From an uncultured Gemmatimonadales bacterium (GTDB lineage: Bacteria; Gemmatimonadota; Gemmatimonadetes; Gemmatimonadales; GWC2-71-9): a DNA stretch of 64,000 nt. Made by a program: the position numbers and the translations under genes. Below the pieces are notes generated by a model. The model was not told the DNA's origin and searched no databases. It worked only from the letters and a program-made list of their open reading frames with translations. Position 1 is the stretch's first letter. Every line of letters starts with the position of its first letter. The stretch spans positions 576,001 to 640,000 of the forward strand of contig CAVOGR010000001.1 of assembly GCA_963695555.1 (NCBI GenBank). Direction: 5' to 3'. Positions 1,492 to 29,124 of the stretch are shown one piece after another.

Positions 1492-2946
1492 CTAGTCCAA
1501 AATCGACTGCCGGTGGCAGGCCAGGCACATCACCGGGCTCTTCGATTTCATCGTCTCGGCATCGAACCCGGGCCCGTGCGGGTTGATGCGCCGTCCGCCC
1601 AAGGCAGAGTGACACTGGAGGCAGTCACGCTGGGAATGGCAGGTGGCGCAGGTCTCCAAGCCCTGCCGTGCCGCCTGGCCGTGCCCGAAAATCCAGGTGG
1701 ACTTCCGGTTATGGAACCCGGTGTCGATCCGTCCGCTCGTGGCCAATCCTTGGCCCGTGTGACAGTCGCGGCAGAACGCCTCCGGGTTGTGACAGGTGGC
1801 GCACTCCACATCCTGACCGAAAGCCGGGGCCGAGTGCTGCAGGACGAAATTCTCCGGGTGGTACCGCCCGACCGGCTCTCCCGGGGTGCTCAGGGCTTCG
1901 GATCCCAAGTGGCAGGTGATGCACTGGTCCTGCGTGTGGCACGTGGTGCACGTGGTGGTCGCCGAGGCGGCAAGCGCCTTATGGTTTTCTGCGAACCCGG
2001 CCGTGTGGGTCGACGGGCGGCTGCCGCACGAGGACAACGCCCTGTGCCTGGTGGACGCTCGAGGCCTTTGCCCGGCCCGGAGCCAATTCCGGAATCGGAT
2101 CGGGCAGGGGAGACACGTGGCACGTGCGGCAACTCTGTTGGGTGTGACAGGTCGCGCAGGTCGCTATGTTGGCACGTGCCGACTCGCTATGGCTTGCCTG
2201 CCAGTCGCTGGCACCATGCGATGCCGGGATCGGATAGGTGACCGGGCGTTTCGACACGATCTCCGCCACCCGGGGATCGGACTCCAGCGACTGGATTGCC
2301 GGAACCGAGGCGGCGTTCACATGGCAGGTGCTGCACAGATCGCGCGAGTGGCACACGGCGCACCGCGCCGCGTTGTCGCTGGCCAACGGGCCATGCTCCA
2401 GCACGAAGTTGTCGCCATGGTCGGCCAGGCTTCGGGAACGCGAGGATCTCCTCCCCGGTGTAGTCACTGCGCCTCCCACGACGGCACGTGGCAGGTGGCG
2501 CACGGCGCATCGACCTCGTGCGTCTTTCCGGCCGCATGACACCCGAGACAGCCCCCCACCGAAACGCGCTGGATGTCCATCGCCTCACCGCCGGACTTCT
2601 GGTGGCAGGTGGCGCATTTGAAGTCCATGCCGAGGGCCGCCTTCTTCTTCGCGATGACCGTGGCATGGTCGAAGTTGAGGTTGCTCGGCGTGCGACTGCG
2701 GCCCTCCCAATCGACCCGCGGCTGGGTCTGTCCGTTGTGGCAGGCGCCGCAGAACGAGGCCGCTGGAATGGTGACCGCTCCCGCCTCCACTTTGTGGCAG
2801 CTTTCGCAGGTCGGGAAGAGATGTTGGTGCTTGAGATGCGGAAACGCGCTCTCCGCGATGGGCGCGCTGGTCCCGCTGCCTCCGCTGCTCCACGCCACCA
2901 GGCCCAGCATGACGGTGGCGGCTGCGGTTCCCAAACGGATGATCAT
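1492..2946 (-). CDS. Periplasmic multiheme cytochrome c, ~16 CxxCH (reconstructed across ~3 frameshifts)
   Basis: ATG at 2946 overlaps the porin stop (ATGA); signal peptide MIIRLGTAAATVMLGLVAWS; 5 CxxCH in ORF 2464-3012, 4 in ORF 1979-2542, 7 in ORF 1492-2037; fragments join via DYTGEEILAFPKP and RQPP/STHTAGF. Confidence 0.85.
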
Positions 2947-4436
2947 GGCCGCCTCCCTGGCTCCGAGCCGATGTAGAACGCGAGGCCGAACGATGCCCTG
3001 AGCTGGTTCCAATCGGGCAAGCCGGATTCAGGGTCCCGGCGATCGTGGCGGTAGCGGTCCACCGCGCCCCACACCGTTCCGATCGGTGAATCGTATTTGA
3101 CGTTGCCGCCCACGCTCCAGACCCGGCCCTCGCCGACGCGGAACTCTCCCAGCTGCTGAAAGGCCGAGAATCGGGCACCGAGGCTGAGTTGGTCGAGCGG
3201 GCGGACATTCACCCGCGCCTCACCCGCGCTCAAGGCAGAGCCGAAGGTAAAGTCGAGATAATAGGACCCCTGCACGTCAACCTGCCTGGTGGCGCGCCAG
3301 TTAGCCGACGCTCCCGCTTTCCAGGTGCGGTCGGTCGTGACGATGAACGGGACCTCCGCCTCGGTGTCGGCATAGTCGCGTCGCTCGCCCTCCAGACGGA
3401 TCGAGAGATCGGACCGTGGTTGAATTCCCACTGCCAAGCCGTATCCGGTGTAGGGCACCGGACTGAAGGCGGCCCAGATGGTTTGCAGGTCGAATACCGG
3501 CCGGTAGCGGAACAGCCGCCCCTCGACGTACAGCTTGGAGATGGGCGACCATCCTACTGTCGCACCCGCCTTACCCCACCATCCCGTGCCCAGGTCGTAG
3601 TCTGCGTGGCCCTCGATCGATAGGTCACGGATGGGCCGGTAGGAGGCATCGACAGCGACCCGCTCCGACGCGATGGTGGAGCGGTTGGTTTGGATCTCCT
3701 TTTGGTAGATGGCCTCGATGGACCCGTTCGGGATCGGCCGCGCCGAGGCGCGGACACCGAACAGGTAGTTCCGGCGCCGCGGCTGGAATTCCTCGAGCGA
3801 GGCGAGGGCATCCGACGTGACCGGTTCTGCCAGGCCCCGCGCCAGGCCCCAGCCGCCGTAGGCCTCGAGCTCGATGCGGGCGGGCCGGAACCGCACCTCG
3901 GCCGACGCGCCGTCGTAGCCGTAGTACCCGAGGCCGCTCATCTGGAAGTCGCGTCCCAGGCGGAAGCGGTAGCGGTCTCGCTTGAGTTCCACGTAGCCCT
4001 GGATCAGGTCGAAATGGTCGTCCGAGCGGGGCCAGAACTCTTCGTCGCCCAGGGACGCACGAAGCCGGGTGCTCAGGTAGACCCTGAGGCCCTGGACGCC
4101 GAATCCCCATACCGAAAGGTCGAGGTCCTGCACCAGCGGGGCGGTCGAGACCACCTCGTCTGAGTCGTAGAAGAAGCAGTAGGCGGCCGCGGGCGCGCAG
4201 GTCACGAGCCGCCCGTTGAACGTGCTCCGCCCGCCCACCAGGGCCGTGTTGGCGATGGGCACGCTGTCGAGCCGGTACGGCCTGAGCTCGACGTACTGCG
4301 CCCGGGTGGAGGCGCGTCCGCGCCATTCCTGTGCGCGTGCGGGTGCGGGTGAGGAGGCCAGGATGGCGCCGAGAGATGCCAGGGCAACCAGAGCGGTGGT
4401 GGTCTTGTGGGTCCGAGTGACGACGGTCATTCGCAC
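2943..4436 (-). CDS. Putative outer-membrane beta-barrel (porin of a porin-cytochrome complex)
   Basis: Signal peptide ending ARA-Q; amphipathic aromatic/Gly-rich beta-strand pattern throughout; C-terminal strand ASFGLAFYIG; lies between two MHC genes. Start is GTG 4436 or ATG 4430 after GGGAGGA. Confidence 0.75.
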   Translation of the reverse strand: MRMTVVTRTHKTTTALVALASLGAILASSPAPARAQEWRGRASTRAQYVELRPYRLDSVPIANTALVGGRSTFNGRLVTCAPAAAYCFFYDSDEVVSTAPLVQDLDLSVWGFGVQGLRVYLSTRLRASLGDEEFWPRSDDHFDLIQGYVELKRDRYRFRLGRDFQMSGLGYYGYDGASAEVRFRPARIELEAYGGWGLARGLAEPVTSDALASLEEFQPRRRNYLFGVRASARPIPNGSIEAIYQKEIQTNRSTIASERVAVDASYRPIRDLSIEGHADYDLGTGWWGKAGATVGWSPISKLYVEGRLFRYRPVFDLQTIWAAFSPVPYTGYGLAVGIQPRSDLSIRLEGERRDYADTEAEVPFIVTTDRTWKAGASANWRATRQVDVQGSYYLDFTFGSALSAGEARVNVRPLDQLSLGARFSAFQQLGEFRVGEGRVWSVGGNVKYDSPIGTVWGAVDRYRHDRRDPESGLPDWNQLRASFGLAFYIGSEPGRRP

Positions 4437-4494
4437 GGGATCCTCCCGGAGACCGGGGCGCCGAAATTGAACTCGTCTCGACTATGATGATACA

Positions 4495-4529
4495 CACGAG
4501 CGGGCGGGAGTGAATCCCGCCCGCTCGTG
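4495..4529. terminator. Perfect 15-bp stem hairpin (terminator or mRNA-stabilising structure)
   Basis: CACGAGCGGGCGGGA-gtgaa-TCCCGCCCGCTCGTG between the lipoprotein MHC stop and the porin start. Confidence 0.6.
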
Positions 4530-4594
4530 CACTGCTTCAACTAGGCGACCCTAGCGGTTCCCCCTTGACCCGTGTCGTGTCGCCCTTCCCCCAG

Positions 4595-6219
4595 TCAGCG
4601 GATCCGCCGCACACCAGGCGGCATCGGACCCGCGACGTCGACGGTGAATCGGTACGCCGGGCAACATATAGGTCGACCTCACCTCGTTGATCGAGGCGAT
4701 GAGCAGGGCCTTCAGCAGGAACGGGTTGTGCACCCCTTCACCGCTGGCCTTGTGGGTGCCGATATGCTGGCCGAACACGTCGAAGCTTTCCCAGTTGTCC
4801 CTGGTATGGGTATAGGCCAGGAACGCGTTCCAGATCGCACCCTTCGCCACGGTCATCGGCGCCGATCCCGATGGATCGAATTGGGTCGAGTCGCCTTGGG
4901 CAACTACCTGCGGCAGGAGCCCCGCGTCGGTGGCGTCCATGACGTGGTTGGCATCAGTGTCAACCCACAGCTGGTCGAGCAGGAACTCCAGCTCTCTCGC
5001 GGAGCGTGCCGAACCGGGCTGCCATCTGGGCGTTGGTGGCGCCTACGTGGCACCCGGCACCGGTGCAGGCCACATACTGGCGCTGATTGTCGGCGCAGGT
5101 TCCGGTGGTCGGCAGGCCCTGTGCGTCGAGGCAGGGAATCGCCTCGAAGGTGTGGCCCACCGAGGTGAGCAGGAAGTCGCCCGTGGCCGCATCGGTCACG
5201 TCGAAGAAGTTGACGTGGCACGTGGCGCAGAGCTTGGTGTTGGCCGTGCTGCCGTGAGTCGAGGCGATCGAGTTGGTGTCATACACGAACCCGGTCGGGA
5301 TGTACCCCACGTTCTGGCCCAGCACCAGGAGACCCTGGGCGGCATGTGGCCCGTGCGAGGACCACGGTGTGCCTCTTCGCGAGTGGCAGGTGACGCAGAG
5401 GTGCTGGGTCGAGGCGACATTGATCGGCGCGCGCAGATTGGCATCATTGGGCGAGCCGTGCGGGTCGTGGCACACGATGCACACGATGTGCTCGGGCTGC
5501 CCGTTGTTCTTCTCGATATAGTTATCGGTCTCGAGGAACTTGACCGCCATCGCCGTCTTGCCCTCGTGGCACTCCATGCACGACGGCGTGGTGCTTGTGC
5601 CCGAGCTAACGGCCCAGGCGGGCGTCAGTGCGTGGGCCGACTCTTCCCACTGCTCCACGAACGGATGGTGCGCCCCTTCGTGGCATTCGCCGCATCCGGT
5701 GGTGAGGCCGGTGCTTACCGACATCGGCGCCAACGGCTGGGTGGCGTCCGGATCCTGAACGTGGTCATAGCCCGAGCCATGGCAGCTCTCGCACTGGACG
5801 TCCTCGTAGGCCTCGTCGGCTACCAGGTTGTAGCCGGCCGGCTGATCCAGGGCGTTGCCGAGCTCGCTGATGGTGTGGCAGCCCTCGCAGAATACCTGCG
5901 CGCCACCGCTCGACTGTAGGCCGGCCCACGCGTCCGCGTGGCCGGTCCGCTCCCACCCGGCCTGCTGCCCGACGTGGCAGTTGCCGCATGCGGTCAGCTT
6001 GGCGTCCTTGTCGAAGTAGCCCAGGAAGTTGAAGGTGGCATCAGGCGGCGGGTTGAAGATTTCCCGGTCGCGGAACACGACTTCCGTGTCGGTACAGGCG
6101 GCCAACACGGTCATCGCGCCCACGAAAGCCAGCGCGAGCCATACACCACGCGTCCGGCGCGGGGCATGTGTGATACGAACGAGTCTTGCTTTCACATCCA
6201 CCTCCATTGCCATGGCCAT
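4595..6219 (-). CDS. Multiheme cytochrome c lipoprotein, 8 CxxCH + 1 CX4CH (frameshifted near 4995; exact start and end uncertain)
   Basis: Lipobox TVLAA-C; hemes CGNCH, CEGCH, CESCH, CGECH, CMECH, CIVCH, CVTCH, CATCH plus CTGAGCH; removing one base in GAGAGAG joins it to the C-terminal part ELEFLLDQLWVD...GVHNPFLLKALL (ORF 4551-4940). Confidence 0.85.
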
Positions 6220-6522: not shown

Positions 6523-6918
6523 TCAGGCGGGCTTGTGGCACACCGTACAGTCGGTATCGACGCGCCCCTTGTGATCGGCCGGCATGGCCTTCACATCGGG
6601 CACGGCCCCGGAGTGGCACATGGAGCACTTGTCGCGGCCCTCGAGAGCGTGAGGGATGGCCGTTGGGGCCTTGGTCAGCATGGCGGCGTCCGGCGCGTGG
6701 CACCACAGGCAGGTCTTGACCTCCAGGCCCTTGTGGCTTGCGGCCGGTGCGGCCGGGATGTCGGGCATGGCGCCCGAATGACACATGGAGCATTGATCCC
6801 GCCCCGCCAGGTCGTGATTCACGGCCGGCGGCTTGGCCGCCTGTGCCAAAGCGGGCACCACGCCCACGGTGAGCAAGAGGATCGCCCCGATTGGGACCAG
6901 ACGGAACAGGTTCTTCAT
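6523..6918 (-). CDS. Small periplasmic tetraheme cytochrome c (tandem diheme repeat)
   Basis: MKNLFRLVPIG...ALA-Q signal peptide; CSMCH, CLWCH, CSMCH, CTVCH; the two halves are clearly duplicated. Confidence 0.9.
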   Translation of the reverse strand: MKNLFRLVPIGAILLLTVGVVPALAQAAKPPAVNHDLAGRDQCSMCHSGAMPDIPAAPAASHKGLEVKTCLWCHAPDAAMLTKAPTAIPHALEGRDKCSMCHSGAVPDVKAMPADHKGRVDTDCTVCHKPA

Positions 6919-7095: not shown

Positions 7096-7102
7096 CCCCG
7101 AC

Positions 7103-9244
7103 TCACTGCAGGACCGACCAGATCACCAGCACGATGAGGCTGATCCCGAGCGCCAACGCCATGAAGCCCAGGATGATCGACCACCCGTAGAAGACGGTCG
7201 ACGGGGGCTCGACTTCCAAACTCGCGAGCCGGCCCTCGGCCTTCAGCCGCTCGTATTCCAGCGGATGCTCCTCCTCCATGTACTGTTCGGTCGCGCTCCC
7301 GGTGAAGATGACGACGTCGATGGGAAATTTCTCCGGCCGGAGGTGCACGTTGAAGAAGTGGATAGTAAAGATGAAGCCGAGCGCCAAAAGGGCCTCGTCG
7401 CCATGCACGATGGTGGCGACGTTGAAGATCCACCCGGGGAAGAGCAGCGAGAAGAACTCGGGGAACCAGAGCAGGAGCCCCGAGCCCCCGATAATGGCAA
7501 CGCCCCAAAACACCGCCCAATAGTCGAACTTCTCCATATAGCTGAACCGATCGAATTTCGGCCGCGGACCGAGGCCCAAGAACCACCGGAACTGCTGCAC
7601 GATATCGAGGATGTCTTTCGGTTGCGGGACCATGGAGTTCGGTCCCCAGAGCAGGTCCTGCTTGTTCGTGCTCCGAAAGGCCCGGACCGTGAGGGTCGCG
7701 ATGTGGGTAAGGAAGTACCCGAACGTCAGAATGGCACAGAAGCGGTGGATGAACCCGGCGGTCTGGAAGCCCCCGATGGCCTTGACGAAGGTGCCCGCCC
7801 ACGGCGAGGACGAGAAGTGAAGTGGGATGCCGGTGATGACCAGCCCGAAGAACGACACGATGACGAACGCGTGGAGCGTGCGGTCGAGCACCGTGAACCG
7901 CTGGAGGTAGGGCCCGGGCCCCCGATGGGAGGCGCTGATGGCGCGCGTCACCCAGCGCCACGCCCAGGGCATGAGCGAGCGGCCCGATGATCGCATCCCG
8001 TCGATAGCCAGGCGCGTGAGCCAGAGCAGGGTGTGAAGCCCGAAGAAGCTGAACACCCCGACCAGGAGCGACGTCATCCCGAGCCAGGTCCAATACATCA
8101 AGGGATATCGGTTCCGCTGATGCTCGTCGGCGTGGGCGTGGTACCTGACGAAGTTCTGGTTGGCCTTCGGATGGCACCCGGAGCAGGTGGCCACCAGCTT
8201 GGTGGGGAACACCGACGATGCGGTGTCCGTGGCGGGCAGCATGTCGTGGGGTGTGTGGCAGTCGCTGCACTTGGCCGTCAGTCCGCCGCCCAACCGGGTC
8301 ACCTTGCCGTGGTAGGTCCCCAGGTAGGTCTCGAGCAATTCACCGTGGCACGACCCGCACTTGTCCGCCATGCCCAGGAACCAATCGGGCTGGTCCGCGC
8401 GTACCACCTCGTGTGAACTGTGGCACTCCACGCACACCGGAGCTTCTCGTCCCTCCGCGGTGCGGACGCCGGTCTCGTAGGCGGTGCCATGCGCCGACTG
8501 CATGTACACGTCGAGAATGCCGAGATGGCAGGCGCCGCAAGTCTCCGCGACGTTGGCGCGATTGACCGATGATTCAGCCGAGTCGGCCGGCAACACCTTG
8601 TGTGCCCGGTGGCAGTCGTTGCAGGTGGCTGAGACCAAGAGACCGGCGCGAGTGAGTGCGACCCCATGGACCGTGGTGTGGTATTGCGCCACGGCTTCGC
8701 GCGCCTGTGCTCCTTCCGGGCCCGAGAAATACGTCCCGATGATGTGCTCGTCGGCGTGACAGCTGCCGCAGAGCTCCGCCACATTCAGCGCGTGGGTCGG
8801 CGAGCGCCGGTCGTCGGCGCCGTACACGGTATGGGCGGCGTGACACGACACGCAGGTCGGGGTGTCGCCATTGGTGTCCACCGCATGGATGGACTCCGCC
8901 CAGTCGGCGCCCTGTGTTTCGTGACAGCCCGCGCACGGCACCGCCTTGGCAGGTGCCGCATGGGGAAACCCGGCGTCGAAGCCCGGATGGCAATCGGTAC
9001 AGGTCTGGCCGGCGTGCTTAGTGTCTCGGAGAATCGAGTCTGTGACGTAGAGAGTAGCCCGCTGGCCTAACTGCGGGACCTTCCCCATCAAGAACTGCCG
9101 GTCGCCATGGCACTTCTGGCAGTCGACCGACGAGGCCGGCCGGGCGCGGGCTTGGGCCCGAGGGGTCTGCGCTTCTATTCCATGGGACGTCACCACCAAG
9201 GCGCCGGCCAGGACGAGTAGCCGGGCGCCGTAGTGGCTGATCAT
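7103..9244 (-). CDS. CbcL-like fusion: 11-heme periplasmic cytochrome c + C-terminal cytochrome b (FdnI/HyaC-type) membrane domain
   Basis: Signal peptide from MISHYGARLL; 11 CxxCH; TM helices with His ligands (TLHAF, IHRF, IVHGDEALLA, IHFFNVH) and FSYMEKFDYWAVFWG. Confidence 0.85.
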   Translation of the reverse strand: MISHYGARLLVLAGALVVTSHGIEAQTPRAQARARPASSVDCQKCHGDRQFLMGKVPQLGQRATLYVTDSILRDTKHAGQTCTDCHPGFDAGFPHAAPAKAVPCAGCHETQGADWAESIHAVDTNGDTPTCVSCHAAHTVYGADDRRSPTHALNVAELCGSCHADEHIIGTYFSGPEGAQAREAVAQYHTTVHGVALTRAGLLVSATCNDCHRAHKVLPADSAESSVNRANVAETCGACHLGILDVYMQSAHGTAYETGVRTAEGREAPVCVECHSSHEVVRADQPDWFLGMADKCGSCHGELLETYLGTYHGKVTRLGGGLTAKCSDCHTPHDMLPATDTASSVFPTKLVATCSGCHPKANQNFVRYHAHADEHQRNRYPLMYWTWLGMTSLLVGVFSFFGLHTLLWLTRLAIDGMRSSGRSLMPWAWRWVTRAISASHRGPGPYLQRFTVLDRTLHAFVIVSFFGLVITGIPLHFSSSPWAGTFVKAIGGFQTAGFIHRFCAILTFGYFLTHIATLTVRAFRSTNKQDLLWGPNSMVPQPKDILDIVQQFRWFLGLGPRPKFDRFSYMEKFDYWAVFWGVAIIGGSGLLLWFPEFFSLLFPGWIFNVATIVHGDEALLALGFIFTIHFFNVHLRPEKFPIDVVIFTGSATEQYMEEEHPLEYERLKAEGRLASLEVEPPSTVFYGWSIILGFMALALGISLIVLVIWSVLQ

Positions 9245-9257
9245 GCTGTGGAGCTGC

Positions 9258-11327
9258 TTACTGCCCAGTCGCACGGGTCGAGTCGGCAGCGGGCGCTGCC
9301 TGCGGCGCCATCCGGTGGCATCCATCGCACGGCAAGGGTGCGTTGTGGTCGACGCGATCGACGTGGCAGGTGGTGCAGACCTGCCGGCTCCATCCGGTCA
9401 GGTTCTTCACGGCCTCGCCGTGACATTGGACGCACGCCACGGTATGCGCGATCGCCTTCGTGTGTTTGGCCTTGACGCCGTCTTCCGGCCGGTGACAGTT
9501 GAGGCAGGTGGCCTTGGGTTGGTGATGCGAGTCGTGGCACGATTCGCAGTTGAGGTCCGTGGCCTTCATGCTCGGCGCCTTGTGGCAGGTAGCGCAGCTG
9601 AGGTCCGCGGTGAGATGGGTCTGATGCGGGAAGAGATCGCCGCCGGCCGTGGCGATCGTGCCCTCGGGCGCGCCGGAACCCCCCTGGTGGCACCGGGCGC
9701 AGTCCAGCGGTTGCGCCGCCGCGCGGTGATGACAGGACTGACAGTCGGCCGCCGACCCGAGCCGGGTCTTGCCGTGGTCCTCGATGGGTGTGTGGCAGGC
9801 CGTGCAGGCCAGACCGCCGCGCAGCACGTGCCGTTCGTGGCTGAACGATGTGCCCTTGAAGTCGACCGTCTTCCGTTCCGTGCCCAGGTGGCATTGCAGG
9901 CAGACGTTGGCGGTCACCGACGGTCCGAGGTCCACCGTGGGCACTGTGTAGGGCAGCCGGCCGGCAGTGACTGCCTGGCGCACAAACTGAAGCGTCTGGC
10001 GCAACAGTTCGTCCGCGAAGGCGATGTTGTGTGCCCCTTTGCCGTCCTGCACCAGCGCGACGTTGTCGTCCGCCAATTGGAAGAGCGAGTCGACCGCGGC
10101 CCGGGTCCGGACCGACGCGGCACCGCGCGTGCCCTTGGCACTTCGCACGACGCTGGCCACCCGGTCCACCTTCCGGTTCATCTCCTTCTGCCAGGCGGGC
10201 AGGATGTTGGCGTAGCGGGTCCCGTGGCATGACAAGCACGCCGCTTCCCCAGCCATCGAGACCTGCTCGTGTCCCTTCACCTGGGTCGTCAGCTCGTGGC
10301 ACCCCTTGCACGACACGTTGGCCAAGTACATCGAGCTCGGCATGGCCTCGGTGCCGTGACCACCGATTCCGGCATAGAGCTTCCGCTGCTGATCGTGCGT
10401 TTGTTTGTGGCACGAGCGGCAGTCGAGGTCGAAGGTCTCGCTGTGAGACAAGACCCGGTGTTCGATCGGGAGGTGGCACTGGGCGCACTCGACGTTGTGC
10501 TCCGCGATATGGATCTGGTGCATCACCGTCGTATTGCCGAACTGCTCGATCCGCTCGGGTTCGTTGTGGCAAATGAAGCAGCGCGACTGCTCGGCCGTGC
10601 CCAAGCCATCCGTGACGTTGTCGTGGCAGGACACACACGAAACCAGGTCGCGGACGTAATCCTCGTGATCGACGGTGAAACCGGCCGGCGACACCACCCG
10701 CGGCGGTGTCGGATGGCACCCGACGCAACCGCCGATGGGGTCGCCGGCCGGGCGGCCCTTGAAGTGGCAGAGGAAGCAGGTGGAGGCCGTCACGGTGAGG
10801 TGTTGGCCCTGCACGATCTGCGAGTGGCAGCTGGTGCAGCGGAGGTCCTTCCCCCGCCTGAGCTCGCCGAGATGAGACGAGTGGTCGAAGCGGACGCCCT
10901 CGAAGCTGACCTCCCCTTCCAACTGACGGGTCACATGGCAGCCTGAGCGGAGACACGCGGCGTCTTCGATCTCGGCCCACGGCCTGAGGCCGTAGGTGCC
11001 CGTCACGTATTTCACGACTTGATTTGCCGCCTGGAGTTTGCCCATGGCCTCCGCTTTGATGCCGGGCGCGTAATGGCACTGGATGCATGGCACGAAGTTG
11101 TGGGAGGACGTCTTCCAGGACTCGTAGTACGGGACCATGTTGTGGCAGTTGTTGCAGAAGCCCGGCTGCGCGCTGTACTCCACGAAGCCGACCGTTCCCA
11201 CGCCTGCAAGGATGACCAGCAGAATGCCAAACTGAATGGCCAGGCGCAGCGGGCGGGCGCGGAATATGGCCGACAGCCCGCGAGCGCTGGAACTCACCTT
11301 CTCCTGGGGTTCGTCAGGCGTGGTCAT
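9258..11327 (-). CDS. NapC/NirT/NrfH-type membrane-anchored cytochrome extended to 21 CxxCH + 1 CX4CH
   Basis: N-terminal TM helix followed by FCNNCHNMVPYYESWKTSSH...PCIQCH (NrfH/NapC signature CxxCHxM); 21 canonical motifs plus CLRSGCH. Confidence 0.85.
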   Translation of the reverse strand: MTTPDEPQEKVSSSARGLSAIFRARPLRLAIQFGILLVILAGVGTVGFVEYSAQPGFCNNCHNMVPYYESWKTSSHNFVPCIQCHYAPGIKAEAMGKLQAANQVVKYVTGTYGLRPWAEIEDAACLRSGCHVTRQLEGEVSFEGVRFDHSSHLGELRRGKDLRCTSCHSQIVQGQHLTVTASTCFLCHFKGRPAGDPIGGCVGCHPTPPRVVSPAGFTVDHEDYVRDLVSCVSCHDNVTDGLGTAEQSRCFICHNEPERIEQFGNTTVMHQIHIAEHNVECAQCHLPIEHRVLSHSETFDLDCRSCHKQTHDQQRKLYAGIGGHGTEAMPSSMYLANVSCKGCHELTTQVKGHEQVSMAGEAACLSCHGTRYANILPAWQKEMNRKVDRVASVVRSAKGTRGAASVRTRAAVDSLFQLADDNVALVQDGKGAHNIAFADELLRQTLQFVRQAVTAGRLPYTVPTVDLGPSVTANVCLQCHLGTERKTVDFKGTSFSHERHVLRGGLACTACHTPIEDHGKTRLGSAADCQSCHHRAAAQPLDCARCHQGGSGAPEGTIATAGGDLFPHQTHLTADLSCATCHKAPSMKATDLNCESCHDSHHQPKATCLNCHRPEDGVKAKHTKAIAHTVACVQCHGEAVKNLTGWSRQVCTTCHVDRVDHNAPLPCDGCHRMAPQAAPAADSTRATGQ

Positions 11328-14257: not shown

Positions 14258-14324
14258 GATGCTCCGTGCGTTCCTTTCAGGGGGTGTGGGCTGCATTTCG
14301 ATCGATGTCGGTCGGCACGGGAGA

Positions 14325-19834: not shown

Positions 19835-22151
19835 GTAGCGCCGCCCCCGCTCCACCCGTCAAGCGGGTGCGGCTGCATGTGACGGGCGTGGTGCAGGGTG
19901 TGGGCTTCCGTCCCTTCGTCCACCGCCTGGCGCTCCTGCATGGGCTGGGCGGGTGGGTCCGGAATGCGTCGGGCGACGTGGAAATCGAAGTCGAAGGCCC
20001 GAGCACCGCGCTGGAGCAATTCCTCGAGAGCCTGGAAACCGACGCCCCTCCACTCGCCAGGATCGAACGGGTGAACGACGGAGCCGCAGCCGCCCGAAGG
20101 GGAGACGGAGTTCCAGGTTCGTCACGAGCCGGGCCGAGGCCAACCGCCGCCAGCCGGTCTCTCCCGACGTGGCCATCTGTCCGGCGTGCGAAGCCGAACT
20201 GTTCGATCCGACCAACCGGCGGTATCGCTATCCCTTCATCACGTGCACCGACTGCGGGCCGCGCTACACGGTGATCGGTACCATGCCGTACGATCGGGAG
20301 CGCACCAGCATGGGTGCGTTCACCCAGTGCAACGCGTGTCTCCTCGAGTACCAAACGACCAGCCGACCGCCGGTACCACTCGGAGACCAACAGCTGCGCC
20401 GAATGCGGCCCCCAGGTCTGGTTCAGCGCCATCGAGACTCCCAGCCAGTACGTCGCACGGCCTCGATGCCATCGAGCACGCGGCCCGTCTACTCGACCAG
20501 CGGACGGATCGTGGCGGTCCGCGGGCTCGGCGGCTTCCACTCGGCGGTCGATGCCACCGACGCCAAGGCGGTCGTGCGGCTCCGACAGCGCAAGCGGCGC
20601 GAAGCCAAGCCCCTGGCCGTGATGGTGCGAACCCTGGCGGATGCCCGTGAGTTGGCCGTCATCGAGCCGGAGGAGGCCAGGCTCCTGTCGTCGTCGGCGC
20701 GCCCGATCGTGCTCGTGGCTCCCACGACCAATACCCCGCTCACCGGGGAGGTATTCCCGCGGCTCGACCGTGTCGGGATCATGCTCGCCTACACGCCGCT
20801 GCATCACCTCCTGCTCGACGCCGTCGCCCGCCCGCTGGTCATGACCAGCGGCAACGTCAGCGATGAGCCCATCGCTACCGGGAACGCCGAAGCGTTGGTG
20901 CGGCTCCGTACCCTCGCTGACGGCTTCCTGCTGCACGACCGGGAAATCATCTCACGCTACGATGACTCGGTGGTTCGGCTGGTGGACGGACATCCGATAT
21001 TCCTGCGCCGGGCTCGTGGCTATGCGCCGCTCCCGCTCGACCTCCCGGTCGCGAGTCCGGTCCCGCTCGTTGCGGTCGGTCCGCACCTCAAGAACACGCT
21101 CACCCTGGTGCACGGACAGCGGGCGTACGTGAGCCAGCATATCGGAGATCTGGAAAACCTGGAGACGCTCGAACACTTCCAGGCGACGCTCCATCGCCTG
21201 CGCCGCCTGTTCGACATCGACCCGCAGGTCGTCGTTCGCGACCATCACCCCGGGTATCTCTCGACCCGCGTAGCCGACGAATTGGACTGTGCCCGTGTCC
21301 TGGCCATTCAGCATCATCACGCCCATGTCGCGGCCGTCATGGCCGAGTATGGAAGAACCGCGCCGGTGATCGGGGTGGCCTATGACGGAACGGGCTATGG
21401 TGACGACGGGAAGGTGTGGGGGGCGGAAATCTTCGAGGCCGACCTGCTCGGGTACCGTCGGCTGGCGCATCTCACGTATGCGCCGCTTCCCGGTGGTGAG
21501 CGGGCGGTCCGGGCTCCGTGGCGGACGGCGTTGGGGTATCGCTCGCTCGATCATGGGGCAGCGGCAGCTTTTGCCCTTGCCTTCCGCGGCGTGGACCCGG
21601 CGGAGCTCGAACTCGCCGGCCGACAAATCGATCGGGGCATCAATAGCCCGATGGCCTCTTCCATGGGCCGGCTGTTCGATGCGGCCTCCGCCGTATTGGG
21701 CTTGCGCCACCGCGTGCGGTACGAAGGACAGGCGGCGATGGAACTCGAATCCGTGGCGGGCCGGAGGAACGGAAACGAACTCCCCTACCGGCTCGAGGAC
21801 GATGGAGCGGGCGGCTGGGTGTTGGATCCGCTCCCGCTGCTCGTCACCATCGGTGAGCGCCGCCAGCGTGGCGCAGAGGTGGAGGACCTCGCCGCGGATT
21901 TCCATGCAACGGTTGCAGCGGCTACCGTTCGACTCGTGCTTCGAGCCGGCGATGCGACTGGACGGCGCACGGTGGTGTTGAGCGGTGGAGTCTTTCAGAA
22001 CGCCCTGCTTCTCAGGTTGGTGAGCACCGATCTTGCGGCCCGCGGACTGGAGGTGCTCGTACCGCGCCTCCTGAGCCCGAACGATGGCGCGATCAGCTAT
22101 GGCCAGGCGGCAGCGGCAGCCGCCATGCTGCGCCGCGAGTCCGCCGCCTAG
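19831..22151 (+). CDS. hypF: HypF carbamoyltransferase (frameshifted in 5' part)
   Basis: Acylphosphatase GVVQGVGFRPFV; CPAC, CTDCGPRY, QHHHAH, DGTGYG, SSMGRLFD, SGGVFQN, PNDGAISYGQ. Confidence 0.93.
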
Positions 22152-22164
22152 GAGGGAATCCCCA

Positions 22165-22461
22165 ATGTGTCTCGGCATACCCGGTCGCATCATCGACATT
22201 CGCGATGACGGCGGACTTCCCATGGGCACGGTGGATTTTGCCGGGGTGCGCCGAGAGGTGTGTCTGGCCTACGTCCGAGATGAAGTGAAGCCCGGCGATT
22301 ACGCCATCGTTCACGTGGGCTTCGCTATCAGCAAAGTCGATGAGGAGGAAGCACGCCGGACCTACGAGCTGCTCAAGGAAATGAGCCAGCTCGACGAGCT
22401 CGAATGGATGGAAGAGGTGGCAGAGCAAGGGCTCGGGACGCTCGACGAGACGCCGTCATGA
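22165..22461 (+). CDS. hypC: HypC chaperone
   Basis: MCLGIPG, VHVGFAI. Confidence 0.95.
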
Positions 22462-23576
22462 AGTTCCTCACCGAGTATCGCGATCCCGCCTTGGCCCGGA
22501 GACTCATCGATCGGATCTTGAGCACGGCCACGCGGCGATGGGTCCTGATGGAAGTGTGCGGCGGTCAAACGCACACCATTGTGAAGCAGGGCATCGACGA
22601 GTTATTGGAATCCGCGATCGAGATGATTCACGGGCCCGGCTGCCCGGTCTGCGTGACACCGCTCGAGCAGATCGACAAGGCGCTCCACCTCGCGTCCCGC
22701 CCCGACGTCATTTTCACCTCGTTCGGCGACATGTTACGGGTGCCTGGCAGCACCTGTGACCTCCAACAGGTCCGCTCCCGCGGCGGGCAGGTGCGCGTGG
22801 TGTACTCGCCGCTCGATGCATTGGAACTGGCCCGAAGCAACCCCGATCGCCAAGTGGTGTTCTTCGCCGTGGGATTCGAGACGACGGCGCCGGCCAACGC
22901 CATGGCGGTCTGGCGCGCCCGCGAGCTCAATGTTTCGAATTTCAGCGTCCTGGTGTCGCACGTGACCGTACCGCCGGCCATGACGGCCATTCTCGAGTCG
23001 CCGGACAACCGGGTCGAGGGATTCCTGGCCGCGGGCCATGTGTGCACGGTGATGGGATGGACCGAATACGAGCCGATCGCCGAGCGTTACCGGGTGCCGA
23101 TCGTCGTCACCGGGTTCGAGCCGCTGGATCTCTTGGAGGGCATGTACCTGGCGATCCGGCAGCTGGAGGAGGGGCGCTACGAGGTCGAGAACCAGTATGT
23201 GCGGTCGGTGCGGCGCGCGGGCACGGTACCGGCGCGCGAGCTCGTGGCCAAGGTCTTCGAGCCGGTGGATCGGCAATGGCGTGGCATCGGCACCATTCCG
23301 CGGAGTGGATTGGGTCTCAGGCCCGAATTCTCCGATTTCGACGCGGAACTGCGATTTCGGCTGGGGGAGCTGCACGTCACCGAGCCCGAAGCATGCCGCG
23401 CCGGGGACGTACTACGCGGCCGGATCAAGCCATTCGAATGCGAAGCCTTCGGCACGCTGTGCACTCCGGAACGGCCCCTCGGCGCGCCGATGGTGTCGAC
23501 CGAGGGGGCCTGCGCGGCGTACTACAACTACGGACGTTTCCGGGCGGATCAGCATCAGGCAGCGCGCCGTGAGTGA
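22458..23576 (+). CDS. hypD: HypD hydrogenase formation protein
   Basis: [44 protein letters not shown]. Confidence 0.95.
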
Positions 23577-24633
23577 AGACGTGTCGGTGGCATCAGGCTT
23601 GAATTGTCCGATTCCCTTCGAGGCGACCGACCGGGTTCAACTGGGTCACGGGTCGGGTGGCAAACTGAGTGCTGCCCTCCTGCGCGAACGCTTCCTGCCT
23701 CATTTCGGGAACCCCGCACTCGATCAACTCGCTGACGCCGCGGTGGTCACGTTGGGTGGAGTGGATATTGCGGTGTCCACCGACAGCTTCGTCGTGAGCC
23801 CACTCGAATTTCCCGGCGGAAACATCGGTTCCTTGGCCGTGCACGGGACCGTGAACGACCTGGCGATGATGGGGGCGCGGCCCATGTTCCTGTCCGCGGG
23901 CTTCGTCTTGGAAGAGGGGCTTCCGTTCGACGTGTTGGACCGGGTGATCCACGCCATGGCTGAAAGTGCCCGCGCGGCGGACGTGTTGGTGGTGGCGGGC
24001 GACACCAAGGTTGTCGAGCGGGGCAAGGCCGACGGATTGTTCATTAATACGGCAGGTATCGGACGGCTGGGCCCCTCGTTCCGCCCGGCTCCCGGCAATG
24101 CCCGCCCCGGCGACGTGATCCTCGTCAGCGGAGCCATCGCCCGCCACGGCATGGCCATCATGGCGGTACGCGAGGGGATCGCCTTCGACGCGCCCATCGA
24201 AAGCGATTCGGCCTCCCTCTATCCGCTGGTCCGGCTGCTCGAGCAAGCCGTGGGCACCGACGTGCACGTGCTGCGCGATCCGACGCGCGGCGGGGTCGCG
24301 AGCGCGCTCAACGAAATCGCGGCCGCCTCGAAGGTCGGGATGGCGCTCGAGGAGGGTGCGATTCCCGTTCCGGGACCGGTGGCGGGGGCCTGCGAGATGC
24401 TCGGGCTCGATCCGCTGTATGTGGCCAACGAAGGTGTCCTCATCGCCTTCGTGCCCGAACACCGGGAAGCTGAGGCACTCGAGGTGTTGCGGGCGCACCC
24501 GCTGGGGCGGGATGCCACCCGGATCGGCCAGGTGGTCGACGAGCATACCGGCTTCGTCGTGCTCCACACCGGCCTGGGCGGGCGCCGGATCGTCGACCTC
24601 CTTCCCGGTGATCAACTTCCTCGTATTTGCTGA
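23569..24633 (+). CDS. hypE: HypE carbamoyl dehydratase
   Basis: [33 protein letters not shown]-terminal LPRIC. Confidence 0.95.
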
Positions 24634-24705
24634 CTGCCACGCCGAGGCATTTCCGAGTAGAATTCCCCCCTCACGAATCGTGCATTTCATTGAGGAGAGC
24701 GTGGC

Positions 24706-25482
24706 ATGACGACGTCCAGTACGTGCCCGGCGTGCGGAGCCTCCGCAGCAGGGAAGTTCTGCAGCCGGTGTGGGGCGAGTCTTGGCGGAGGCTCGTGCAG
24801 CGGATGTGGCGCGGCGTTGCCGAAGGGCGTCAAGTTCTGCCCTGGCTGCGGCGCCCCGGCATCGGGTGCCGCCGTCGCCCACGTCGGCCGGACCGACCGC
24901 ACTCCCTGGATCATCGCGGCGGTTGCGACGGTGGGCCTGCTCGCCGCGCTCCTCATCATGGTCTCGCGGAGCTCCTCGGGCCGGACCCCGGACCCTCTCG
25001 GGGCGCCTGCCGCTGGTGCGGCTGTGGGAGCGGGTGGCCTGCCCGATTTGAATGCGATGGGTCCGCGTGAGCGCTTCGATCGGCTTTACAATCGAGTCAT
25101 GCGGGCGGCAGAGGGCGGAGACCCGAACACGGTGTCCAACTTCGGGCCGATGGCTCTGCAGGCGTACGACATGCTTCCGGAAGCCGACCGCGATGCCGAT
25201 GCGCGGTACCACGCGGCGATGATCCACCTCCATTCCGGCGGTGCGGCACAGGCGGTGGCCCTGGCCGACACGATTTCGGCCCAGGTCCCCGCCCATCTGT
25301 TCGGCTTCGTGATTCGTGGCACAGCGGCGAAGCTGGCGACTGACAAGGCGGCGCTGGCCAAGGAGTATGCGGGGTATCTGAAGAACTACGATGCAGAAAT
25401 GAACGTCGGCCGGCGGGAGTATGGCGAGCATCCGGCCATTCTGGAGTCGTTCCGTCAGGAGGCGCAGGCGGCCGGTGGATGA
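24706..25482 (+). CDS. Double zinc-ribbon + TM + helical (TPR-like) protein
   Basis: CPAC..FCSRC..CSGC..FCPGC, TM helix WIIAAVATVGLLAALLIMV, helical C-terminal domain; directly upstream of ccmE. Confidence 0.75.
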   Translation: MTTSSTCPACGASAAGKFCSRCGASLGGGSCSGCGAALPKGVKFCPGCGAPASGAAVAHVGRTDRTPWIIAAVATVGLLAALLIMVSRSSSGRTPDPLGAPAAGAAVGAGGLPDLNAMGPRERFDRLYNRVMRAAEGGDPNTVSNFGPMALQAYDMLPEADRDADARYHAAMIHLHSGGAAQAVALADTISAQVPAHLFGFVIRGTAAKLATDKAALAKEYAGYLKNYDAEMNVGRREYGEHPAILESFRQEAQAAGG

Positions 25483-25548
25483 GCCCCGACCATTTTATAT
25501 TGCAGGGCGAACGAGTCGGAATTGATCGAGCCCGCGAGCGGAGGATAC

Positions 25549-25974
25549 ATGAAGGCCGGAACCAAGTTCTTTCTCGGAGCTGTGTTGATCGTCGGCAGCG
25601 TCGGGTTCTTGATTTTTGAAGGCGTGCGGCAGACCGGGGTCTACTTCCTGACCCCAACCGAGTTGGCGCAGAAGACTGCCCAGGATCCCACGTTCCATAG
25701 TGTCGGGCTCAAGATGGGGGCCCGGGTCGTGCCCGGCACCATCGAGCGCGATGCGGCGACCCAGACCGTCGAGTTCAGCGTGACGGATGGCACCACGTCC
25801 TACCCGGTCATCTACCAGGGCCTGGCGCCCGACACCTTCAACGACGAGCAGGAAATCGAGGTGGTGGTCGAGGGCCGATTGGGCACGGACGGGGTCTTTC
25901 ACGCCACGACCCTCCTGGCCAAGTGCGGATCTCGCTATGAAGCGGAATACGACACGGCCGAGCCTGAGGCCTGA
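25549..25974 (+). CDS. ccmE: Heme chaperone CcmE, Cys-type (CxxxY)
   Basis: YFLTPTE, PDTF, VVEG, LLAKCGSRY; RBS GGAGG. Confidence 0.9.
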   Translation: MKAGTKFFLGAVLIVGSVGFLIFEGVRQTGVYFLTPTELAQKTAQDPTFHSVGLKMGARVVPGTIERDAATQTVEFSVTDGTTSYPVIYQGLAPDTFNDEQEIEVVVEGRLGTDGVFHATTLLAKCGSRYEAEYDTAEPEA

Positions 25975-25977
25975 TCC

Positions 25978-27999
<2,022 letters not shown>

Positions 28000-28000
28000 C

Positions 28001-28606
28001 ATGACACGACGTCTCTCGGCGCATCACATTCTCCGGCGCGGCCTCCTGCCGCTATTCATGCTCGCGCTGGCCGGCGCGCTGGGCGCCCAAGAGGCCGCCC
28101 CGTCTTCGCAGGAGGAAGCGGGCCGGCTCTACAATCCTGGCGCGGTGCAAGAGCGCACCCCAACGGTCGACCTGGACAACGACGAGTACATCAAGGAGCT
28201 CGAGAAAGGCCTTCGCTGTACCTGCGGGTGTAACCTCGACATCTACACCTGCCGCACGACTGACTTCTCGTGCGCCACGTCGCCGGCGCTCCACCGAGAG
28301 ATCCTGGCGCTCCACAACGACGGGAAGACCGCCCAGGAAATCATGGACGACTTCGTCGCCCGGTACGGTGACGAGGTGCTGATGTCGCCGAAGCCCGAGG
28401 GGTTCAATCTGGCTGGCTATCTCGTGCCCGGCATCGTCATGGTCATAGCCGGGCTGCTGCTGACGGCGCATCTCCTGAAGAGGCGTAGGGAACAGGTGGT
28501 GGTTCCGGTGGCGGACGCGAGCGCCCCATCGATGCCGCCAGGGATCAATGGCAGTCCGGATGAGCTCGAGCGCCTGCGCCAGGAATTGCTCAGGGAGGAC
28601 GGCTGA
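28001..28606 (+). CDS. ccmH: CcmH/NrfF-like cytochrome c biogenesis protein (variant Cys motif)
   Basis: Signal peptide; LRCTCGC; GKTAQEIMDDFVARYGDEVLMSP; C-terminal TM helix. Confidence 0.8.
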   Translation: MTRRLSAHHILRRGLLPLFMLALAGALGAQEAAPSSQEEAGRLYNPGAVQERTPTVDLDNDEYIKELEKGLRCTCGCNLDIYTCRTTDFSCATSPALHREILALHNDGKTAQEIMDDFVARYGDEVLMSPKPEGFNLAGYLVPGIVMVIAGLLLTAHLLKRRREQVVVPVADASAPSMPPGINGSPDELERLRQELLREDG

Positions 28607-29124
28607 TGGTGTTGGAAGCGCTGGCCGCCGGCATGGTAGGTTTGCTCGCGCTCTGGTTCGTGCTCGACCCCGTGATACGTCCCGCGCCGCCGGCACCACC
28701 CATCTATGAGCCGCCCGACCCCCAGGAGACCGCGAAGGGGCAGGCGCTGGCCGCGCTCCGCGAGATCGAGTTCGATCGGGAGACCGGCAAGCTGTCGGAC
28801 GCGGACTACGATGAGCTGCGGAAGACCTACACGGCGGAAGCGCTGGTCGCGATGCGGGCCGAGGAAGGCGGGGCCGGGGCCGGCGCCGGCCCCGATGAAA
28901 TCGAGCAGATGGTTGCGGCGCGCGTCCGAGCGCTCCGCGGCGGAGCCGGCGTGGCGGACGGCGTCGTCTGCCCGACCTGCGGCCCGCGCCCCGAAGACGA
29001 GGCAGCGTTCTGTTCGTCGTGCGGACGGTCGCTGAACGGGGCCGGCGCATGCACCGGGTGCGGCGCGCCGCTCACGCCAGGCGCCCGGTTCTGCGGCAAC
29101 TGCGGAACCAAGGTTGCGGCCTGA
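28606..29124 (+). CDS. TM + CcmI-like N-terminal region + C-terminal double zinc ribbon
   Basis: ALREIEFDRETGKLSDADYDELR (resembles the CcmI cytoplasmic loop); CPTC..FCSSC..CTGC..FCGNC. Confidence 0.7.
   Translation: MVLEALAAGMVGLLALWFVLDPVIRPAPPAPPIYEPPDPQETAKGQALAALREIEFDRETGKLSDADYDELRKTYTAEALVAMRAEEGGAGAGAGPDEIEQMVAARVRALRGGAGVADGVVCPTCGPRPEDEAAFCSSCGRSLNGAGACTGCGAPLTPGARFCGNCGTKVAA

Follow-up and report, generated by a model that had tools for sequence, protein, structure and literature searches.

A gemmatimonadotal porin-cytochrome-type gene block with a conserved uptake hydrogenase neighbour

Introduction

Whether bacteria of the phylum Gemmatimonadota can pass electrons from hydrogen (H2) to acceptors outside the cell is the question raised by a gene block in an uncultured Gemmatimonadales bacterium (assembly GCA_963695555.1, contig CAVOGR010000001.1). 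The block lies at positions 1492 to 29124 of a 64,000-nucleotide stretch, hereafter the window (G000:C1:576001-640000), and joins genes for six multihaem cytochromes and a predicted outer-membrane barrel to the genes of a [NiFe] hydrogenase. Gene content, folds, motifs, conservation and linkage show the block to be a genuine system, conserved in Gemmatimonadota and of porin-cytochrome type, that has a hydrogenase as a conserved neighbour and includes an unusual, degenerate bc module. On balance, we favour the reading that these genes specify a porin-cytochrome conduit carrying electrons across the envelope, coupled at the genome level to a membrane-bound uptake hydrogenase and used for H2- or quinol-driven extracellular electron transfer. 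An earlier note, made from the letters of the window alone, had proposed a complete and self-contained chain of this kind, an interpretation that is supported in part.

Gemmatimonadota are abundant in soils and sediments, and their physiology is almost unknown. To our knowledge, the phylum contains no known metal reducer. One CbcL-type and two ImcH-type homologues have already been listed in Gemmatimonadetes (PMC6295460). No description of the present module or of its hydrogenase link in Gemmatimonadota was found in the literature searched, and the supplementary tables of PMC13264449 and PMC6295460 may list such loci.

Gene content of the block

The source genome (G000) comprises 3.57 Mb in 14 contigs, with 65% G+C and 87.1% completeness. 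Genes were called by third-position G+C (GC3), and the called genes were then scanned against Pfam. A genome of the same genus (G002, 98% complete) served as the reference for intact orthologues. All protein work was done on the G002 orthologues, and the letters of the window were left unrepaired.

The block consists of two divergent arrays. The minus-strand array runs from 14257 to 1492 and encodes, in this order, a Rieske-like protein, a cytochrome b, a 9-haem cytochrome, a 22-haem cytochrome, an 11-haem fusion protein, a tetrahaem cytochrome, an 8+1-haem lipoprotein, the barrel and a 16-haem cytochrome. The plus-strand array (about 14727-29124) contains hupS, hupL, hupC, hupD, hypA, hypB, hypF, hypC, hypD, hypE, a gene for a zinc-ribbon membrane protein, ccmE, ccmF, ccmH and a gene for a second zinc-ribbon protein. 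Window calls and intact G002 orthologues give 16+8+4+11+21+9 = 69 CxxCH motifs for the six multihaem genes, plus two CX4CH motifs, one in the 8-CxxCH protein and one in the 21-CxxCH protein. This recount is identical to the figure given in the earlier note. Genome-wide, 104 CxxCH motifs were counted in open reading frame (ORF) pieces that carry three or more, and this block accounts for 69 of them. Four products are quinone-type membrane proteins: the bc-type cytochrome b, the 11-haem/cytochrome b561 fusion, the NapC/NirT-anchored 22-haem protein and HupC.

A chimeric assembly is excluded as the origin of the block. Positions 1-47747 of the window are colinear with G002 over 47.7 kb at 92.9% identity, and the intergenic joint at 14278-14604 is spanned by contigs from independent runs. 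The gene block is thus real in content and haem count as first described, but several of its genes, which that description read through, are split over frames in the window.

Outer-membrane module

Three neighbouring minus-strand genes encode the barrel and the two cytochromes flanking it. The gene at 1492..3072 encodes the 16-haem cytochrome (MHC16), which has a Sec signal peptide and no lipobox. The gene at 2943..4436 encodes the predicted barrel, a protein of 497 amino acids (aa) with a signal peptide ending ARA-QE, and the gene at 4551..6219 encodes a lipoprotein cytochrome (lipobox VLAAC) with eight CxxCH, one CX4CH and a haem-free C-terminal domain. The MHC16 gene is spread over three frames in the window (7+4+5 CxxCH) and shows five one-base indels relative to its G002 orthologue, which encodes 525 aa with 16 CxxCH. 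The lipoprotein gene lies in two pieces (4960-6219 and 4551-4940), with three one-base indels relative to the intact 539-aa orthologue. All 16 CxxCH of MHC16 are invariant in an alignment of 36 homologues, and the protein matches PF22113 (MtrC/MtrF domain II/IV) at 42.5 bits, above the 30-bit cut-off. The eight CxxCH and the CX4CH of the lipoprotein are conserved in 40 homologues, and its lipobox cysteine is present in at least 90% of the 40.

The 497-aa protein is predicted to be a wide outer-membrane beta-barrel of 22-24 strands without a plug domain. Its AlphaFold2 model, built from a 74-sequence alignment (predicted local distance difference test, pLDDT, 89.5; predicted template-modelling score, pTM, 0.83), consists of a signal helix followed by 24 long strands. 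The top Foldseek matches of the model are outer-membrane barrels only (FimD usher, MOMP, chitoporin and AlgE), with MtrB (6r2q) at rank 17 (E 1.7e-8). Among the 74 family members, OMP_b-brl is matched by 11 and Porin_4 by six, and the alternating hydrophobicity of the protein is four-fold over that of shuffled sequences. Since the model, the Foldseek matches, the family Pfam matches and the hydrophobicity pattern agree, the barrel named in the earlier note is upheld. The protein itself matched no Pfam or NCBIfam family and no sequence in the PDB. Relatives were found in 325 clusters of a library of 1.84 billion representatives; an Atlas search returned unnamed Gemmatimonadota clusters, and the nearest named families (OMP_b-brl/Porin_4 at 0.93 and BBP2_2 at 0.92) are leads only.

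Related loci were collected with a nine-row barrel alignment, which found 459 stretches, and the following counts refer to the best 80 of these 459. The phylum assignment, given as probable in the earlier note, is supported by 79 of the 80, which are titled to Gemmatimonadota, the remaining one being titled 'uncultured bacterium'. MHC16 lies no more than 10 kb from the barrel in 71/80 loci, and the lipoprotein cytochrome in 66/80. The order lipoprotein-barrel-MHC16 is kept in 58 of the 60 Gemmatimonadota loci holding all three genes. Exactly 16 CxxCH are found in 47 of 51 complete MHC16 ORFs, and eight CxxCH with one CX4CH in 48 of 61 lipoprotein ORFs; another 11 of the 61 (loci L019-L037) have nine CxxCH and no CX4CH. 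By profile search, the barrel was detected in 73 of 151 genomes sampled across the phylum, with full-length matches confined to the class of the window.

The module thus has the gene arrangement of a porin-cytochrome complex, namely a barrel gene beside multihaem genes that encode one exported and one lipoprotein cytochrome, as predicted from their signal sequences. In the Geobacter Pcc survey, atypical haem motifs were restricted to outer-membrane cytochromes (PMC4245776). By analogy, the lipoprotein cytochrome probably faces outward, since the atypical CX4CH sits in it.

Two side observations concern the lipoprotein. The nine CxxCH without CX4CH in L019-L037 would support haem binding by CX4CH if the extra CxxCH lies at the same position. 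The bin 4501-5000, which covers the haem-free C-terminal domain, is the most diverged from G002 (19.8% mismatch, six gap columns) and has low contig depth in all four runs described below; it represents either a noisy patch or a fast-evolving surface domain.

Inner-membrane and periplasmic cytochromes

Three further minus-strand genes encode candidate links between the quinone pool and the outer membrane. A periplasmic tetrahaem cytochrome of 131 aa with a signal peptide is encoded at 6523..6918; it has four CxxCH and matches cytochrome c7/c3 families of Pfam. The gene at 7103..9325 encodes a CbcL-like protein of 740 aa, in which an 11-haem periplasmic domain (PF03264, 48.6 bits) is followed by a C-terminal cytochrome b561/HydC-FdnI-like domain (PF01292, 30.5 bits; cut-off 30.1). 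It carries a signal peptide and four hydrophobic segments in its C-terminal half, and its match to the formate dehydrogenase gamma family of NCBIfam (38.2 bits) is below the cut-off. The protein has the domain architecture of the CbcL/MtoC/MtrH group.

The 22-haem cytochrome (21 CxxCH and one CX4CH) is encoded at 9258..11327. It combines an N-terminal anchor (residues 24-53) with a NapC/NirT/NrfH-like head (PF03264 at residues 53-136, 30.8 bits; cut-off 24.1) and so has the anchor and haem head of that family; NrfH of NCBIfam is matched at 43.8 bits, below the equivalog cut-off. In 19 of 21 loci, a gap of 1.5-3 kb beside the barrel encodes an anchored protein of about 20 haems (17-18 CxxCH and 2-3 CX4CH). 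Judged by its sequence, this protein appears to be the functional equivalent of the 22-haem protein of the window.

As a separate observation, the bins 9501-10000 and 11501-12000 differ from G002 by 0.0% and 0.8%, respectively, with flanks at 3-12%. These near-identical bins reflect either recent recombination between two populations or consensus mixing in one assembly.

Degenerate bc-type cassette

The earlier note listed several quinone-interface membrane proteins; a working Rieske/cytochrome b complex as one of them is not supported by the residues of these proteins. The genes concerned, all on the minus strand, encode a membrane-anchored Rieske-fold protein without [2Fe-2S] ligands (13814..14257), a bc-type cytochrome b of 415 aa in which b6 and subunit IV are fused (12561..13808; PF00033, 174.6 bits) and, in place of cytochrome c1, a 9-haem cytochrome with a C-terminal membrane anchor (11314..12564). 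Alignment to the Rieske proteins of sister loci shows that the four ligand positions have changed from Cys to Ser, His to Thr, Cys to Ser and His to Thr/Ser in six of six members of the window's clade, with the two disulfide cysteines kept. The sister proteins are canonical (CTHLGC...C[AP]CH), and three of them match PF00355 at 47.7-50.3 bits; none of the six window-clade proteins reaches PF00355.

The cytochrome b keeps both HX13H haem pairs and lacks the PEWY motif of the Qo site. At this position it reads TTWPPVSV, followed by an eight-residue deletion, whereas 22 other module-linked cytochromes b read PEWYF. Among its 120 closest homologues in a collection of 5.8 billion proteins, P[ED]W[YF] occurs in none and the variant motif in 96. 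With a ligand-less Rieske fold and a cytochrome b lacking PEWY, no Q cycle is possible in this cassette. The three proteins might instead form a dihaem-b transmembrane wire to periplasmic haems, which is the least certain part of the reconstruction. The five-gene cassette (Rieske-like protein, cytochrome b, 9-haem cytochrome, 22-haem cytochrome and 11-haem fusion) recurs at 59-71% identity in loci L015, L017, L074 and L089, and it occupies three different positions relative to the barrel module. A widespread cytochrome b clade that has lost PEWY together with the ligands of its Rieske partner is a natural experiment on the bc scaffold without a Q cycle.

Hydrogenase and maturation genes

The genes hupS, hupL and hupC (14727..15924, 15914..17646 and about 17700..18425, the ends of the last being approximate), all on the plus strand, encode the small subunit, the large subunit and the b-type cytochrome of a [NiFe] hydrogenase, respectively. 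In the window, hupS lies in three frames with one-base gaps at 15080 and 15453, hupL lies in at least three frames (Pfam pieces 1-244, 244-415 and 418-508), and hupC is heavily frameshifted, with PF01292 matched in the 16938-18257 frame. The genes that follow on the same strand at 18351..22151 encode the HupD protease, a short HypA, HypB and HypF and are frameshifted to about 20495 and clean beyond, and hypC, hypD and hypE (22084..24633), recognised by Pfam, are intact.

The G002 HupL (572 aa) covers positions 1-508 of PF00374 at 777.7 bits and carries the nickel-ligand motifs RICGVC and DPCMACGVH. Its matches to proteins of known structure are 783.6 bits to the Allochromatium vinosum enzyme (3myr_B), 681.4 bits to Hyd-5 (4c3o), 636.4 bits to Hyd-1 (3uqy) and 599.1 bits to the R. 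eutropha membrane-bound hydrogenase (MBH; 3rgw). HupS, which has the Tat motif SRRDFL and a C-terminal anchor, matches TIGR00391 at 442.9 bits (cut-off 179.5), and HupC matches TIGR02125 at 183.2 bits (cut-off 121.5). The full PF00374 profile, the nickel-ligand motifs, the Tat small subunit and the b-type cytochrome subunit are those of a group 1 membrane-bound [NiFe] uptake hydrogenase, and by these sequence characters the enzyme is classed as an ordinary member of that group. It resembles the four structurally known enzymes in its end-to-end alignment, Tat small subunit, C-terminal anchor, cytochrome b and HupD protease. The Tat-exported group 1 hydrogenase with cytochrome b and maturation genes (hupD and hypABFCDE) that the earlier note described is therefore borne out, but its label 'divergent' does not hold for an enzyme whose orthologue scores 783.6 bits against A. 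vinosum; the broken frames are most likely assembly noise, as discussed below.

In an alignment to variants of R. eutropha MBH, the proximal-cluster positions of HupS read ECTGC and WGN. The six-cysteine signature of oxygen-tolerant group 1 enzymes (CTCC, WGC) is not present in the G002 HupS. We take CTGC/WGN as opposed to CTCC/WGC at these positions to separate standard from oxygen-tolerant group 1 enzymes. The system also differs from the four structurally known enzymes in its HypA of only 86 aa. HypA has this length in both genomes in which it was compared (window 18918-19178; L010:11085-11345), matches positions 1-54 of the 112-position profile and lacks the zinc-finger half in both.

A second [NiFe]-hydrogenase-like large subunit is encoded elsewhere in the genome (G000:C7:283151-284443) in a 587-aa frame that matches only the ends of PF00374. 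It is also present in G001, G002 and G004.

Linkage of the hydrogenase and the barrel module

Linkage was examined in 101 genomes of the window's family, with a threshold of E <= 1e-100 for the hydrogenase. The barrel is present in 67 of the 101 and the hydrogenase in 44. Both genes occur in 42 genomes, the hydrogenase only in two, the barrel only in 25 and neither in 32. The two share a contig in 17 genomes, at a distance of 5-21 kb in 15 of these and of over 200 kb in the remaining two; in the other 25 genomes with both, they lie on different contigs of fragmented assemblies. Of the 80 loci, 11 have hupL and 17 have hypB at most 10 kb from the barrel; both counts are lower bounds, since a locus organised as in the window stops short of the hydrogenase. 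The earlier note had named unlinked blocks in relatives as an outcome that would count against it; with 42 of 44 hydrogenase-positive genomes holding the barrel and 15 of 17 same-contig pairs within 21 kb, the two are linked in the sampled relatives.

The two operons of the window are separated by a divergent intergenic spacer without strand assignment (14258..14726), which shows 14.6% mismatch and 13 gap columns relative to G002. Of the proposed shared divergent promoter region, only the geometry is seen, a spacer of about 470 bp. A consensus scan of 14000-15100 gave no sigma-70-like and no terminator-like sites, and the consensus may not apply to this phylum.

Proposed pathway

We infer the topology of the two barrel-flanking cytochromes, the direction of flow, the acceptor and the mode of energy conservation as follows. 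HupSL would oxidise H2 in the periplasm, and HupC would reduce the quinone pool. Quinol would be re-oxidised by the NapC/NirT-like 22-haem protein, by the CbcL-like 11-haem/cytochrome b fusion, or by both. Electrons may then cross the periplasm over the haems of the tetrahaem protein and of the long 22-haem chain and so reach the 16-haem cytochrome, which would be seated in the 22-24-strand barrel and would deliver them to the 9-haem lipoprotein at the cell surface. From the lipoprotein, electrons could go to an acceptor outside the cell, for example Fe(III), Mn(IV), humics or a partner cell. The proton-motive force would come from a redox loop of hydrogenase and quinol oxidase, and CcmEFH, the genome's only haem lyase, would mature the 71 haem sites. 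If this is true, a hydrogenase-tied outer-membrane conduit would let Gemmatimonadota take part in H2 turnover under anoxia and in the cycling of iron, manganese and humics.

Several results weigh against this proposal. All NCBIfam matches to the MtrB/PioB, OmbB, DmsE/MtrA and Ext families are far below cut-off, so only architecture and fold speak for the conduit. The genome offers other outlets, namely three haem-copper oxidase genes and several molybdoenzymes, so H2-derived quinol need not enter the conduit. The hydrogenase is lacking in 25 of the 67 barrel-positive genomes, and H2 is therefore at most one of several donors. The compared genomes are kin and not independent samples, and the hydrogenase genes of the deposited assembly do not read through. 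The RNA-library run X1 has contigs in 30 of 30 bins of 2501-22500, but these are not counted as expression, because contigs cannot show transcription and DNA carry-over is possible.

More tentatively, the system may be lineage-wide in Gemmatimonadota, an unnamed porin-cytochrome system (new barrel family, 16-haem cytochrome, 9-haem lipoprotein and anchored 20-22-haem wire) that was selected beside an uptake hydrogenase as a dedicated H2-to-extracellular-acceptor respiration. The clade of the window would also have recruited a bc complex that gave up its Rieske cluster and Qo site together and now serves as a plain dihaem wire to multihaem cytochromes. The three-gene module is a concrete marker for surveys, and its barrel is unnamed in the current Pfam and NCBIfam libraries.

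Alternative explanations

The conduit could run inward, supplying the quinone pool with electrons drawn from outside the cell (donors being Fe(II), Mn(II), reduced humics, minerals or a partner cell), with the hydrogenase as a second, co-regulated lithotrophic input. We consider this doubtful, although it survives better than the other alternatives. CbcL/MtoC/MtrH- and CymA-type proteins are found in organisms that reduce metals as well as in those that oxidise them, and no feature tells the two apart (PMC6295460); in addition, clusters of porin, cytochrome and bc-type subunit genes are known from Fe(II) oxidisers and metagenome-assembled genomes (MAGs) (PMC5566968, PMC13264449). The three haem-copper oxidases are possible sinks for such electrons. 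The four-cysteine proximal signature of the hydrogenase (CTGC, WGN), as we take these positions to mean, instead points to anoxic use, and a donor-acceptor pair accounts more simply for the tight linkage than two donors side by side would. The surface lipoprotein cytochrome with an atypical motif follows the pattern of reducer-type Pcc clusters (PMC4245776), whereas the oxidiser systems MtoAB, PioAB and PCC4 are without an extracellular cytochrome (PMC4245776, PMC5566968).

The barrel-cytochrome module might otherwise serve at the outer membrane to take up or reduce a soluble acceptor, either an oxyanion or an organic compound, much as has been proposed for ExtI with selenite and tellurite. 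The closest named families are indeed ExtP (cytochrome b, 207.6 bits) and ExtM (9-haem cytochrome, a faint match) of the Geobacter selenite/tellurite cluster, and in the ext cluster, too, a porin is grouped with multihaem cytochromes, a Rieske protein and a cytochrome b (PMC5877670). Both matches are, however, below the equivalog cut-offs (207.6 against 290 bits for ExtP and 20.6 against 800 bits for ExtM), no rhodanese or catalytic non-haem reductase is present in the block, and a wide plug-free barrel with 25 haems beside it is better suited to transferring electrons than to taking up solutes. A soluble-acceptor system is accordingly judged unlikely.

It is less probable again that the neighbourhood of hydrogenase and cytochromes is merely inherited gene order among close relatives with no functional link. 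All the genomes come from one phylum, and mostly from one family, in which synteny by descent is to be expected. The barrels of the linked loci are nevertheless only 33-41% identical to that of the window, and the arrangement differs among loci. In nine loci, hupSLCD-hypB lies 3' of MHC16 on the same strand, with a smallest gap of 109 bp; in one locus the hup genes lie upstream of the module and are co-directional; and in one further locus and the window they are divergent. The genes stay adjacent while the intervening cassette comes and goes, and the hydrogenase occurs in only 2 of 34 barrel-negative genomes. Linkage kept across rearrangement and at 33-41% identity argues for function, although the genomes are kin.

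Broken reading frames in the window

Several frames are needed to read each of the 16-haem and 8+1-haem genes, hupS, hupL, hupC, hupD, hypB and the 5' part of hypF in the window, and all of these genes are intact in G002. Among 40 relatives searched, hupL covers the full Pfam profile in 12 and positions 27-508 in a 13th. Between 14727 and 20500, the window shows 44 gaps relative to G002, of which 42 are not a multiple of three and 40 are single-base, and mismatch is raised to 11-14% at 16001-17500; only one gap is found in 20501-29124. Extra letters in the window account for 33 of the 40 single-base gaps, and only one of these extra letters falls within a homopolymer.

Four independent public runs were compared over 2501-22500, of which X1 is an RNA library. 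Runs X2 and X3 show no differences to the window across the nine listed contigs of the cytochrome block, yet they show gaps inside the hydrogenase patch. In all 12 rows listed (of 37), at least one independent contig omits the extra letter, and at 20077, 20121, 20358 and 20449 the letter is kept in part of the listed depth. The same signature is found about 100 kb away, where G000:C1:475400-479400 (L092:3410-7399) holds 41 single-base extra letters in G000 and six in G002 within 4 kb, and the essential gene tuf (58200-59700) is likewise split over three frames. Since G002 is intact, independent contigs omit the letters and the signature recurs in the second patch and in tuf, the frameshifts are treated as consensus errors. 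The broken hydrogenase frames most likely represent errors of sequencing or assembly. That the hydrogenase operon is a decaying pseudogene cluster, so that the block no longer links H2 to anything, is very improbable in view of these extra letters, despite the number of gaps and the raised mismatch. The case is a caution that a reading made without tools mistook assembly noise for divergence.

A frame-switch hidden Markov model (HMM) gave 17 segments per 6 kb for the hydrogenase stretch (genome median 7, 99th percentile 17.5) and several similar stretches elsewhere. It also flagged 56-64 kb, which holds tRNAs and short ribosomal genes besides real frame breaks, so a high segment count alone is no proof of noise. 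Another noisy-looking patch (G000:C5:430-444 kb) has 66% identity to G002 over 1.5 kb and no close counterpart. The assembly as a whole holds patches of about 4 kb dense in single-base extra letters, which probably account for its 87.1% completeness against 98% in G002.

Comparison with known systems

The system appears to resemble the Ext, Pcc/Mtr, CbcL/CymA and PCC systems in its working, and by curated cut-offs it is a member of none. The extHIJKLMNOPQS cluster of Geobacter sulfurreducens (PMC5877670) is the nearest described system. In that cluster, a porin of the outer membrane (about 45 kDa) is combined with several multihaem cytochromes, a lipoprotein among them, and with a Rieske-type protein and a b6-type cytochrome b. 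The window shows the same combination, and ExtP is the second-best NCBIfam match of the window cytochrome b. Unlike that cluster, the block has no rhodanese ExtH and no selenoprotein ExtKL; its Rieske protein is ligand-less, its cytochrome b lacks PEWY, its barrel is flanked by 16- and 9-haem proteins and a hydrogenase is its conserved neighbour.

The combination of a barrel with a Sec-exported multihaem cytochrome and a lipoprotein multihaem cytochrome carrying an atypical motif is shared with Geobacter Pcc (OmaB-OmbB-OmcB) and Shewanella MtrCAB (PMC4245776), and the predicted barrel fold matches MtrB among other outer-membrane barrels. The window system differs in having no detectable sequence relationship to these complexes. 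Its barrel is outside their Pfam and NCBIfam families, and the match to the DmsE family is 42.6-46.5 bits against 192.2. The haem numbers are 16 and 9, not 8/12 or 10/10, and the gene order is lipoprotein-barrel-cytochrome.

The 740-aa protein resembles CbcL in joining an N-terminal periplasmic multihaem domain to a C-terminal HydC/FdnI-like cytochrome b (PMC6295460), but it has 11 haems instead of nine and, on a crude hydrophobicity scale, four hydrophobic segments instead of six. The 22-haem protein has the anchor and head of CymA/NapC/NirT proteins (PMC6295460) and, unlike them, about 18 extra haems. PCC3 and PCC4 of Fe(II) oxidisers also combine a porin, very haem-rich cytochromes and a b-type inner-membrane protein (PMC5566968), and in MAGs some PCC clusters include petB/petC, which encode bc1-type subunits (PMC13264449). 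A ligand-less Rieske protein, a cytochrome b without PEWY and a hydrogenase neighbour are not described in the parts of these two sources that were consulted, and PCC4 differs further in having no extracellular cytochrome (PMC5566968).

Cytochrome c maturation and other genes

The genes ccmE, ccmF and ccmH and a gene for a membrane/double-zinc-ribbon protein are located at 25522..29124 on the plus strand. They show the CcmE, CcmF and CcmH domains of System I (PF03100 at 94.8, PF16327 at 187.6, PF01578 at 136.5 and PF03918 at 66.4 bits); CcmF matches TIGR00353 at 424.6 bits, below the subfamily cut-off of 569. The earlier note described a 'variant Ccm' machinery in a self-contained block. Since the genome encodes no CcmF besides that of the window, and the genes for CcmB and CcmC are found side by side on contig C7, outside the block, ccmEFH is a general haem lyase beside its main clients and not a variant set, and the block is not self-contained. 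Between hypE and ccmE, a plus-strand gene (24627..25482) encodes the first zinc-ribbon membrane protein, which has no assigned role.

Further multihaem ORFs of the genome are located at C1:566444-568667 (4+3 CxxCH), C1:724708-729923 (3+3+8), C2:402046-403782 (9) and C4:10152-10781 (5). The last adjoins a 1018-aa molybdopterin-like gene and possibly belongs to an alternative complex III.

An Rfam scan of the window found nothing except four tRNA genes, which lie in a row at 57855-58269 upstream of tuf. The region 45459-54985 has a sulfur-related character and encodes a rhodanese, a metallo-beta-lactamase-fold protein, a DsrE-like protein and a SulP permease. Downstream in the same region, a 4Fe-4S/NrfD fusion (551 aa), a molybdopterin oxidoreductase of 1024 aa and a NarJ-type chaperone make up a Psr/Ttr-like quinol-linked reductase.

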